Below are positions 1,369 to 58,778 of a stretch of DNA of 64,000 nucleotides, in pieces (the stretch's first letter is position 1; every line of letters starts with the position of its first letter). Below the pieces are notes generated by a model. The model had not been told where the DNA came from. It searched no databases and worked only from the letters and a program-made list of their open reading frames with translations. Both the position numbers and the translations under genes were made by a program. The stretch is from a virus (taxonomy: Duplodnaviria > Caudoviricetes): positions 1-64,000 of the IMG/VR virus record IMGVR_UViG_3300028591_000076; one strand, given 5' to 3'.

Positions 1369-2666
1369 GTGGGATGTAAGATTACACGAGACTGGAGTCT
1401 CGACCAAGGTAAAGCAGAATACTTAATGTTAACTGCCGACTTTGGTTCCTTACAATGATTCTTATGCGTTTAACTACCCAGGATACTTTTATGAACCCAT
1501 CAACTTTGGGTCACTGTGATCCTGGTTTATATGATATTTATAGGGCCGACACTGAATGTGCTGATGCCCATTCTAATACTGGCCGAATTGTCTTTGTTGA
1601 TTCTATTGGTGGCCAATTGTATGTATATACAATGGATGATGGCTCTAAGATTAAGCTATATCAAGATACTAAAATTCCTTACTTGAATAACAAGCTATCA
1701 CAAGACGTTCAGACTGGTGATATTCTGGAAGGGAAAAAAGTAGTTAGTATAGAACATCGTTCAATGACTACAAAAGAGTTTAAGTCTTTTACGAAAGATG
1801 GTTATATTGAAAAATACCAGGATAAACGTTTTGCTGGATGGCGACGTGCTTCTAAGACTGTAAACTTTGCTACACTCTTTGGCGCGACTGCGCCTACCAT
1901 GGCTAAGCAGCTTGAGAATGCTGGTTATAAAGAAGCAGAAGCGGAAGAATATATTGAGCTTACAAATAATACTGTAAGGTATAATGAGAAGCTTATTCAG
2001 ATGCGCGGTAAAATGACACCTCAGAAAGTTAAGTTTTTAGTAGCTGCAGAATTGATGCTCGAAGCTTATTATAATGGTTTCCCGGGTGTTAAAGAGAGAG
2101 CTCTGAGAGAGAAGCTTTTTGCTTGGAAAATGGGTTATTCTAGAATGTGGCATGGTCCTGTAAAGCATCTTCCAGAGCTTAAGTATATGGCAAGAAATGC
2201 TAAAGGTGAGCTAGTTGGAGCAGATAAGAAAATGTGGTCTTCAATGTTTAGTAACTTAAACAATGAAGCTGGAAATGCGCCAATTCAGTGTATGGAAGCG
2301 AATATTGCTATTAAGACTATTATAAATGTTTGTAAGTATGCTAAAGAGTGGAACTTAAAGTCTTATCTGTGGAACATGGTCCACGATTCGGAGGACTGGT
2401 GCGTTTGGAAACCAGAGCTTAATTTGGTTTGCGCATTATTAAATGCGTGTTCAACTTGGAAAAGAAACCCACATTTTGGTATTGATATGTGTATGGATTT
2501 TTCAATTTGTGATCCTTCTAAGGGATTTCAGAATAATATGTACCACGGTGGCCTAGAAAATCCATTTAAGATTGATAAAATAGAAGATGCCGTTGAAAAA
2601 TGGAATAAAGCACATGAAAATATTCCAGATTTTAAGCCTATTTCTTGGCATGGATGTGTTTGTTAG
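1369..2666 (+). CDS. polA: family A DNA polymerase, C-terminal (palm/fingers) part of a split gene; frame break at 1456-1463 in motif A
   Basis: GGAGGAGG + GTG(1369) opens 29 codons ending YLMLTADFGSLQ-TGA; ORF 1455..2666 continues MRL, DAHSNTG, motif B RRASKTVNFATLFG, NAPIQ, motif C VHDS. Confidence 0.85.
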
Positions 2667-14062: not shown

Positions 14063-14618
14063 TTTCTAATATATCTTTATACTTTCGTATTCTAAGGCCT
14101 TTTTCACCTTTCTTAAAATCTCTGGTACAACTTATTTCAGATAATTCTAACTCTACACTATAATCAGAGTTATTTGCGGCCCTATATAATTTTACTTTTT
14201 TATCATTTTCTTCATTCCTAAATATAATTATAATATAATCTTTATCATAAATATATGAATGATATTTACCAAGCGTATCAGAAAAATTAAAGGCCCAATC
14301 ATTAGCAGAGCCTACCGATATATTTTCTTTAACATTTTCTCGTAAATAACATAGCTTTTTATAAAGTTCCTTTTCTTTATTTATCTGGTCCTTACAGTCC
14401 TCAGTTATAATGCTAATTGACCTAAGAATATTATTCTTTTTATCAATCTCTATTTTAGAAGATGTTCTTGAGCCTATCTCAATAGATGACTCTTCGGTCA
14501 TACGATTAATATTATTAAGTTCAGTAATATTGACAATTAGATTTATCAATATAACAAATACTAGTAATACAGAAAATACAGCCCAAAATAAATTGGTAAT
14601 AGTTACTTTAGTTCTCAC
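14034..14618 (-). CDS. hypothetical protein with N-terminal TM helix
   Basis: GTG start, hydrophobic N-terminus. Confidence 0.65.
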   Translation of the reverse strand: MRTKVTITNLFWAVFSVLLVFVILINLIVNITELNNINRMTEESSIEIGSRTSSKIEIDKKNNILRSISIITEDCKDQINKEKELYKKLCYLRENVKENISVGSANDWAFNFSDTLGKYHSYIYDKDYIIIIFRNEENDKKVKLYRAANNSDYSVELELSEISCTRDFKKGEKGLRIRKYKDILEIVNRMCQYE

Positions 14619-15338
14619 TTTTTTGTCCTTTATAGCTAATCGACTCTAACTCACTAATCACTTCATCTAATTTAAGAATTTTATGAGTATAATCAAGACA
14701 TACATTATAATAATCTCTTATATCCACTTTTTTATTTGGATATGCTATTTTAGCTTCTGGTGGTTCAAGACCATTTTTTCTGTATGCTCTTGCTTCCATT
14801 GCCCAATTTTCTAGATCCTTACAATGATATAACTCATCGATACAGGTATTATGTGTATGGCCATAGATTACTTTAAAAGGCGAATTTTTTCCAATATAAA
14901 CAGGCTCATGACAAAGAATATATTTATCCTCAATAATAATTGGATGATCATAAACTTTATCAAAACCAAGCTCGGTAAAAAATTGAATAAGAGACTTATT
15001 CCTTATACCTAAAGTTTTAAGAATAGTTCTATCATGATTACCTAATACGAGATTAAGTGTTCTCTTTACTCCTTTCATTCTACTTACATATGACTTTAAG
15101 CAATTTATACCAGCATCAGCTAACATTTTTGAAAAGAATACATCACCTAAATTCCAAATTATAGTATTATTATCATCAGGCAAGTTATCAAAGAGTTTAA
15201 GAATATCTTCGTTCATTCTAAAGATTTCTTCTCTCTTTGTATAATCATATGGTCTATTACAATATTTTATGATATTTGCATGAAAAAAGTGCTTACCTAA
15301 TGTAAGTCAGAAATAATATATTCATTTCTAACCGCCAT
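14608..15338 (-). CDS. calcineurin-like metallophosphoesterase, interrupted by an 11-nt gap (15289-15299); about 239 aa if the gap is skipped
   Basis: AGGAGG-ATG(15338) MAVRNEYIISDLH-TAG, then FFHANIIKYCNRPY in the frame of ORF 14608..15216 with LGD, GNHD, CHEP, GHTH motifs. Confidence 0.9.
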
Positions 15339-15365
15339 TTTTATCCTCCTTATTTATATAAATTA

Positions 15366-50982: not shown

Positions 50983-52023
50983 ATGAATATTATTATACCT
51001 ACTGATGACCAAGGTAATATGACTTCGTTAGATAATCTGCATAATGCTGTTTTTCTTGCTGGACCATGTCCTAGAGAAGATTATGAGAAAAACGACGTTT
51101 GGAGAAAAGAAGCATATTCAATTTTTGAAGATATTGGCTTTGACGGTGATATTTTAAATCCAACAAATAAAAATTATGGCTTAATGAAAGACCTAACAAA
51201 GCAAACAGATTGGGAAAATGAAGCAATGCATAAAGCATCCGCTATTATTTTCTATCTTGAAAGAACTGAGAAGAATCCGGGATTTACATCAAATGTAGAA
51301 ATAGGCATGTGGCTTAAATCAAATAATATTTTTGTGTGTATTCCAGACGACTCAAGAAAAAAGAATGCAAATGCTTATATTCGTATTAAGTGTGACCAAG
51401 CTGGCATACCCGTTTTTAATACATTAGAAGAAACAATTATTGCTGTAGATGAAAGGCTTAATAGGGAAGAATCAAAAAAATGGTTTATTTCTGATACTCA
51501 TTTTAGCCAGCAAAGAACATTAGACTTTAGTAAAAGGCCATTTAGAAATGTAAGAGAAATGGATTTAGATATAATTTCTAATTGGAATAAAACTGTTAGT
51601 GTAAATGATGATGTTTATGTACTTGGCGACTTTGGGGAAAATGATAAATATCTAGACTGCCTTAATTTCAAAACATTACATTTTGTTAAAGGCAACTATG
51701 AACGTGATAAAGTTCCAGACTTAGTAGAGTCTCTAAAAAAACGAAAAAATGTAAAAGTCTATAATAATGATGAATGTAAAATAAAAGTTGGCGATTTTAA
51801 TTGTGTATTACGTCATGAGCCAATAACAGATTATAAATTAAAAGATGATGAATTTGTACTTTATGGACATATTCATGGACGTCAGTTTATAAAAAATAAA
51901 GGATTAGATGTTGGTGTTGATTGTCATAACTTTACGCCAGTATCGGAAGAAGACGTAGCGTTTTATTTAAATGCTATAGATAAAGGCTATTATGATAATC
52001 AAGTTATGAATAAAATAAACTAA
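50983..52023 (+). CDS. nucleoside 2-deoxyribosyltransferase-like domain fused to metallophosphoesterase
   Basis: VFLAGP..WR..NP..QTDWE..TSNVEIG, then ISDTHF, LGDF, GNYE, RHEP, GHIH, DVGVD. Confidence 0.88.
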   Translation: MNIIIPTDDQGNMTSLDNLHNAVFLAGPCPREDYEKNDVWRKEAYSIFEDIGFDGDILNPTNKNYGLMKDLTKQTDWENEAMHKASAIIFYLERTEKNPGFTSNVEIGMWLKSNNIFVCIPDDSRKKNANAYIRIKCDQAGIPVFNTLEETIIAVDERLNREESKKWFISDTHFSQQRTLDFSKRPFRNVREMDLDIISNWNKTVSVNDDVYVLGDFGENDKYLDCLNFKTLHFVKGNYERDKVPDLVESLKKRKNVKVYNNDECKIKVGDFNCVLRHEPITDYKLKDDEFVLYGHIHGRQFIKNKGLDVGVDCHNFTPVSEEDVAFYLNAIDKGYYDNQVMNKIN

Positions 52024-57957: not shown

Positions 57958-58778
57958 CTAGTCATCCGTAGGAATTACTTTTTCAATATATTCCTTATCT
58001 TGAGTAAAAATTGGAATTTCCTCATCGATTTCCCACCGTGAGCGATTTATTTTTTCATCAAATACATGAATTACACAAGAACCCCGTTTTTCTACAGTCT
58101 TACGGTCATTCCAGTTAATATTCTTTTCTTCATGAAGTTTATCTTGAAGCTGTGAATTATTTAAGCCCTGTATTTGCTTCTGTGAAAAATTCGCTTGAGC
58201 AAGTCCCTGAATTGAATTACGAGTTGCATCATTCTGACGCCAAATGAAATAATTAACAATTTCATTTTCTGGAATATTAAATGCTCTAGCATCAAAATAT
58301 CCACCTAATTCAGTTTTCTTTAAAAGGACATTTTTGTAAAAACGTTCATCTTCATCTTCACGAAAATTATCCTCAACTCTTTCTTTATAGAACTTCTCTA
58401 CCAAGTCTGCCCAATTCTTATTAAAGTACATTGTGGCCATTGACGCAGCGACAGAACAAATTTTCTGAACAGAATAATCAAACCATGCATCGGTCTGTAA
58501 ACTATCATAGTCAGTCAAAAGTAATGAAATTTCGTCAGACTCTACATATCCTATCTTACATCCTTGAATATGCTCACAAAGGTCCTTAGTAGTTAATTGC
58601 ATTACTTCAATAAAAAGTGGGTCATAAGGTTTTCTTAAACCCTTACAAAAACTATGAAAATGACCTAATGACACCCGTCAATACGAATAATGACGGGTGT
58701 CCTACGAGTTAAATATGTCTTAGAGCGGTTTTCGTAGAAATCCTTCATACGATCCCCGAGTGAGTCTCTTACAGCCAT
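57958..58778 (-). CDS. thg1: tRNA(His) guanylyltransferase Thg1/TLP, interrupted by an 8-nt gap (58660-58667); about 270 aa if the gap is skipped
   Basis: AGGAGG-ATG(58778) MAVRDSLGDRMKDFYE...TPVIIRIDGCH-TAG, then FHSFCKGLRKPYD, YVESDEISL, FDARAF, YFIWRQNDATRNS in another frame. Confidence 0.93.

Follow-up and report, generated by a model that had tools for sequence, protein, structure and literature searches.

The minus strand of the DNA analyzed here carries a metallophosphoesterase gene whose reading frame is broken by an 11-nt insert that begins with a stop codon, and from its sequence and its relatives we consider it probable that ribosomes read this gene by means of a short programmed translational bypass (stop-hop) between two matched His codons. 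A bypass had been proposed in a first-pass annotation of the same DNA, and its sequence-level predictions held wherever they were testable, which lends support to the predicted hop. The stretch that was analyzed (hereafter the window) is 64,000 nucleotides long, has a G+C content of 30%, and forms the beginning of a linear virus record in IMG/VR that measures 239,841 bp and is estimated to be 76% complete. No close cultured relative of this phage was found, and the related contigs come from several independent metagenome samples.

Anatomy of the interrupted gene

Translation of the broken gene is preceded by a Shine-Dalgarno sequence, AGGAGG (15345-15350, minus strand), which lies 6 nt 5' of the ATG and is conserved in all gap-bearing contigs. 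Coding part 1 (15300-15338, minus strand) runs for 13 codons from the ATG at 15338 to the take-off codon, includes the DxH metal-binding motif, and closes with GAC TTA CAT. Here, the take-off codon CAT (His; 15300-15302, minus strand), invariant in the gap-bearing contigs, is followed by the 11-nt coding gap (15289-15299, minus strand), of which two sites vary, and which is made up of the stop codon TAG (15299-15297), the bases GTAAG, and the landing codon CAC (15289-15291, minus strand; CAT in three relatives), the first His triplet in any frame past the take-off codon. Both CAT and CAC are decoded by a single tRNA-His. Coding part 2 (14608-15288, minus strand) then opens with TTT TTT CAT and extends over 226 codons to a TAA in the -1/+2 frame relative to part 1. 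The AGGAGG, the ATG with its 13 codons, and the series CAT TAG GTAAG CAC had all been reported in the first-pass annotation and were recovered at these positions.

Downstream, the open frame begins at 15306 and closes with the stop at 14608, and because its first ATG is located at 15216, gene callers give a 202-aa protein from this internal Met that lacks DxH, just as had been remarked beforehand of the open reading frame caller. Skipping 15299-15289, on the other hand, gives DLH-FFH and a joined product of 239 aa with a normal DxH-FxH motif. The motifs of calcineurin-like metallophosphoesterases (DxH, GD, GNH[DE], a later H, and GH) are present in order in this joined sequence, and every residue that is invariant in the family alignment (D11, H13, G61, D62, G96, N97, H98, and D99) is kept. 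Against the Pfam Metallophos profile (PF00149), part 2 alone scores just under the cut-off and the intact ortholog P0002 above it. The earlier claim that an 11-nt skip is colinear with the paralogous domain at 50983-52023 also holds, and a better control is offered by the intact orthologs P0002 and P0009, both of which are exactly colinear with the skip.

Conservation of the insert and of the joined reading frame

A protein search identified close relatives of two kinds, namely calls of 202 aa that begin at this internal Met as well as uninterrupted proteins with lengths of 237-239 aa. Viral contigs searched with the window protein gave no related loci, nor did they contain a match to a flank-anchored sequence pattern, which in metagenome contigs found one true relative (L009) and four chance matches. 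Altogether, the same 11-nt insert is found in six independent contigs (the window and five others from different samples), which were built by different assemblers and represent three haplotypes, and two intact-gene contigs read GAC ACT/ACG CAT TTC TTC CAT with no insert. The survey of homologs that had been suggested earlier thus shows intact orthologs colinear with the skip and gap-bearing copies that retain the gap. The insert is genuine DNA and not an assembly error. For a sequencing or assembly artefact there is nothing to cite beyond the general error rate of metagenome assemblies, and with the same insert in different samples, assemblers, and haplotypes this explanation is refuted and its probability practically nil, as the original argument against sequencing error had anticipated.

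When part 1 and part 2 are joined over the 11 nt, every gap-bearing contig gives a protein of 239-241 aa, with no further stop or shift in any of the six copies. Among the gap-bearers, pairwise dN/dS is 0.12-0.19 with dS of up to 1.15, and comparisons of gapped with intact genes fall in the same range. Moreover, the 24 codons from the landing site to the first Met have a dN/dS of 0.04-0.22, which argues that they are translated in the frame of part 2, and no in-frame start codon lies ahead of them. The leader (13-15 codons) varies in length between lineages through a 6-nt indel that leaves the frame intact, as would be expected if translation starts at the upstream ATG. With purifying selection and no other lesions in six copies, a pseudogene was rejected.

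A related alternative is that no full-length enzyme is made, and that the insert disables or attenuates the gene and leaves a 13-residue peptide or the internally started 202-aa protein without DxH. While the 202-aa frame is the only one found by gene callers, and a distant relative on contig L020 has a decayed N-terminus, we regard this outcome as unlikely, since the leader codons, the DxH, and the 24 pre-Met codons have been under purifying selection across a dS of about 1 and the leader indel preserves the frame. Furthermore, a calcineurin-like enzyme without its first Asp and His metal ligands is expected to be inactive. The L020 homolog itself (P0047; L020:1270-1530), in which the N-terminal region has decayed and DxH is missing, was considered as a further gap case and rejected; it looks like a real truncation, unlike the conserved leader in the clade of the window.

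Variation inside the gap is confined to haplotypes TAG...CAC (three contigs), TAG...CAT (two), and TAA...CAT (one), so that one of the two variable sites preserves the stop codon and the other the His codon. By comparison, 126 of the 226 downstream third codon positions are variable (56%; p = 0.013 versus the 2 of 11 gap sites), and the leader is unusually constant too, with variation at 2 of its 13 third positions (p = 0.008 versus downstream). Part of this strong conservation of the 5' element could come from recent horizontal spread and not from selection, and the codon match may partly be a side effect of the way in which such inserts arise, such as duplication of the target triplet.

RNA structures at the take-off site

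The strongest RNA signal at the site comes from a stem-loop of 12 bp on the 5' side of the take-off codon, and not from the 5-bp hairpin to which attention had been drawn earlier. This 5' stem-loop (15305-15333, minus strand) pairs 15333-15322 with 15316-15305 around a 5-nt loop and has a 3' arm that ends 2 nt before the take-off codon, and its folding energy of -11.9 kcal/mol (z -5.8) was matched by 0 of 200 shuffles. It is retained in all five gap-bearers tested, where the only changes in the stem are between G-U and A-U pairs and the 6-nt indel falls within the loop, and no comparable structure exists in the intact orthologs (z +1.3 and +2.0). As for the hairpin described in the first-pass annotation, in which GTAAG pairs with CTTAC and the stop codon sits in the loop, it folds as described but is weak. 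In this take-off hairpin (UG-A-CUUAC/GUAAG-CA; 15290-15309, minus strand, as predicted by folding), the CTTAC/GTAAG pairing is extended by UG/CA with one bulged A around a 5-nt loop that holds the stop codon, for -4.1 kcal/mol and a z of -2.2. Two-sided covariation was looked for in both structures, and no base pair was changed on both sides.

A 12-nt version in distant relatives

A profile search of IMG/VR gave 80 distant homolog loci, of which 79 are intact and one, L024, is broken, and a 17-nt pattern search (two true matches and 17 chance matches) added a second contig, L114. The phosphoesterase of L024 and L114 is only 40% identical to that of the window, and after its 13th codon the element reads GAC TTA CAT, TAA, GTAAGT, CAC, with a gap of 12 nt that is in frame. 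Here, with one additional T, the take-off hairpin pairs perfectly over 8 bp (-9.2 kcal/mol, z -4.9), and the 11-nt version of the window is that hairpin short of one base. TAG or TAA occupies the A site at take-off in all gap-bearing copies, 11-nt and 12-nt alike. Just upstream of the L024 gene is a gene for a homing endonuclease (phrog_655, E = 1.4e-11), and among the genes neighboring the window phosphoesterase we found no match to an endonuclease.

That 11-nt and in-frame 12-nt versions both exist argues that the landing codon, rather than a frameshift or readthrough, sets the frame: the 12-nt form is beyond rescue by a -1 shift and the 11-nt form beyond rescue by readthrough, and both forms would be rescued by re-pairing at the landing codon or by physical removal of the insert. 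This bears directly on the explanation in which a -1 (or +2) frameshift occurs at or just before CAU UAG, with the gap read as sense and four extra residues (LGKH) placed in motif I. Such a shift would be productive anywhere in GAC TTA CAT, given that the downstream frame is open from 15306, and shifting is known to be stimulated when the A site holds a stop codon (PMC5009743). Against it stands the spacing from DxH to RP[YF], which is exactly 11 residues in 101 of 101 homologs with a detectable motif and is restored by the 11-nt skip, whereas a -1 shift would insert four residues. There is also no slippery X XXY YYZ heptamer, neither tRNA-Leu nor tRNA-His re-pairs at -1, and one of the two gap substitutions would become a Gly to Ser change. 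In addition, the RNA structures lie at or 5' of the site, whereas a -1 frameshift site has its stimulatory structure on the 3' side, and upstream hairpins promote forward and not backward movement of the ribosome (PMC5009743). Taken with the 12-nt form, these points make a frameshift quite improbable. Slippage had been argued against beforehand, and we likewise saw no slippery site in GAC TTA CAT TAG; transcriptional slippage on the T6-7 run was rejected because that run lies past the stop codon.

Removal of the 11 nt before translation, whether by an mRNA cut-and-rejoin step or from a fraction of the DNA, would fit the exact colinearity with the intact orthologs equally well, and the hairpin sets the gap in a defined structure. 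It nonetheless leaves unexplained why nearly all inserts begin with an in-frame stop and end with a codon of the same tRNA, and the insert is present in all six assemblies. Moreover, we know of no 8-12-nt splicing system in bacteria or phages, and removal appears to us very improbable.

Proposed course of the bypass

For the bypass that we favor, the hop, its efficiency, and the roles of both structures are what we infer from sequence, and the following course is offered in that sense. Ribosomes would initiate at the ATG at 15338, translate 13 codons, and stall when CAU, bound by peptidyl-tRNA-His, occupies the P site and UAG the A site. This tRNA would then unpair, the mRNA would slide by 11 nt, and the same tRNA would re-pair with CAC, such that decoding resumes at UUU and gives the 239-aa metallophosphoesterase. 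With CAU in the P site, published footprint sizes would place the 3' arm of the 5' stem-loop inside the ribosome and its 5' arm outside. Refolding of this stem behind the ribosome probably pulls the mRNA forward, and one new base pair could pay for each base slid, while the take-off hairpin probably prevents re-pairing at the take-off codon. At take-off, the nascent peptide has only 13 residues, too few for a signal of the gene 60 type. An ARAGORN search of the 240-kb phage record (G000) found no tRNA or tmRNA genes, so the tRNA-His that makes the hop must be supplied by the host.

Other interrupted genes in the window

A genome-wide scan for a stop followed by a matched codon was too noisy when unfiltered, and once filtered it led to the phosphoesterase and to a second site in a Thg1-like gene. 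Here (58657-58778 region, minus strand), a strong Shine-Dalgarno sequence precedes 37 codons ending in TGT CAT, an 8-nt gap (TAG GT CAT; 58660-58667, minus strand), and then TTT CAT, with the take-off CAT at 58670-58668 and the landing CAT at 58662-58660. The downstream frame matches the Pfam Thg1 profile only from profile position 29. A perfect, G+C-rich 5' stem of 11 bp (58701-58670; -20.7 kcal/mol, z -5.2) ends at the first take-off base and is absent from an intact homolog. Orthologs that are up to 89% identical are intact and read an uninterrupted ...RIDGCH-FHSF..., which leaves this gap without comparative support. We also noticed that both of the clearly gapped genes start with MAVR, encoded by different codons (15327-15338 and 58767-58778, minus strand), and that the intact phosphoesterase orthologs start with MKNK.

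A third break was found in motif A of PolA, where an 8-nt insert (TGATTCTT; 1456-1463, plus strand, within a break region at 1369-1466) has no matching landing codon, and an ATG at 1455 overlaps the TGA stop. Intact PolA orthologs read ...FGSLQ-MRL... at this point. In four relatives (L014, L017, L018, and L019), differing inserts of 5, 7, or 8 nt occur at or near the same place, two of them as CAA-stop-NN-CAA, one as 7 nt after CTT TGA, and one as 5 nt flanked by CGG and CGT. Just upstream of the window insert is a gene for a homing endonuclease (521-1345; phrog_314), and L014 likewise has a homing endonuclease gene immediately before PolA, though of a different family. In L014, moreover, the 5' codons of PolA are heavily recoded at synonymous sites up to the insert. 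With its unmatched landing codon, the window PolA insert means that matched-codon hopping fails to explain every break in the phage. The hexamer CTTACA precedes the stop in PolA as well as in the phosphoesterase, but its absence from the Thg1 site leaves the idea of a shared signal unsupported.

No additional split genes came to light in the intergenic gaps that have long open extensions; all of these were ordinary promoters or terminators, and unmatched breaks inside long genes would be missed by this approach. Shine-Dalgarno strength was useless as a discriminator, with 120 of the 280 open frames lacking a strict one.

Origin of the inserts

The insert in the phosphoesterase was probably brought in by a homing-endonuclease cassette that this locus later lost, an origin supported by the endonuclease genes that adjoin the L024 copy and the PolA sites. 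More broadly, and with rather less than even confidence, we put forward that this phage lineage uses mobile mini bypass cassettes, which homing endonucleases would have seeded into the phosphoesterase, the Thg1-like gene, and PolA, at catalytic motifs in each case, and over which host ribosomes would hop efficiently with no long nascent-peptide signal. In the same tentative proposal, a cassette would comprise a 5' stem-loop and a take-off codon followed by a stop, with 2-6 filler bases between that stop and the landing codon. In two of the three proposed hops the tRNA is tRNA-His, and one of these two lies in a gene that belongs to the tRNA-His guanylyltransferase family. A possibility is that hopping is tunable, for instance through the status of release factor or tRNA-His.

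As a separate observation, the phosphoesterase of two gap-bearing relatives (L003:2768-2872 and L009:5420-5460) starts only after a spacer of about 100 nt that follows the upstream gene. This spacer is 27 nt in the window, and the intact orthologs have overlapping genes instead. This longer spacer may be the remnant of a lost cassette.

Relation to known bypassing systems

To our knowledge, natural bypassing is documented in very few systems, these being T4 gene 60 and its homologs, yeast mitochondria, and, in part, the phage Hau3. The byp elements in mitochondria of Magnusiomyces capitatus are 27-55 nt long. As in T4 gene 60, the stop in the phosphoesterase comes directly after the take-off codon, and a take-off hairpin holds both of them. 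In contrast, the gap is 11 nt here and 50 nt in gene 60, the tRNA is tRNA-His here and tRNA-Gly there, and a hop at codon 13 makes a long nascent-peptide signal impossible. Also unlike the gene 60/MobA case, a different gene family is interrupted, with no adjoining endonuclease and no sequence homology to the gene 60 element. Forward sliding driven by new base pairs has been proposed for the 5' stem-loop of T4 gene 60 (PMC5009743).

The terminase gene of the Streptomyces phage Hau3, with two 10-nt inserts for which bypassing was proposed (PMC10732093), resembles the present case in that a conserved region of a natural phage gene is interrupted by roughly 10 nt that break the frame. There, bypassing was preferred over a frameshift since the junction is conserved, and a nearby stem-loop and Shine-Dalgarno-like signals were proposed (PMC10732093). 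However, the A-site trigger in Hau3 is a rare UUA sense codon, and a regulatory role was proposed there, whereas here the trigger is a stop codon set between matched His codons. Also similar are the synthetic stop-hops in Escherichia coli reporters (Weiss et al., 1987, as cited in PMC5009743), in which a peptidyl-tRNA sitting just ahead of a stop moves on to a matching codon located a few nucleotides further 3', though these were artificial and of low efficiency, and natural use of such hops is not known according to the review (PMC5009743). The mitochondrial byp elements are likewise several short frame-breaking inserts per genome that are tolerated through bypassing (PMC5009743), but they differ in having an unassigned codon in the A site, often imperfectly matched codons, and 81 copies.

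If an 11-nt stop-hop does work, then the skipping of bases could be programmed by a very small signal, without the long nascent peptide of gene 60, and the natural 11-nt and 12-nt versions, together with the three haplotypes, would serve as ready-made mutants for studying the mechanism. The finding also supports a view in which short inserts left behind by homing endonucleases in conserved motifs survive only by means of ribosome hopping. For annotation, it matters that gene callers give the phosphoesterase, the Thg1-like protein, and PolA as truncated proteins without catalytic residues. Along these lines, one further phosphoesterase call and several Thg1 calls (P0116, P0151, P0223, P0252, P0253, and P0259 in all) start just past the motifs at which the gaps are located, and these may conceal more gap variants.
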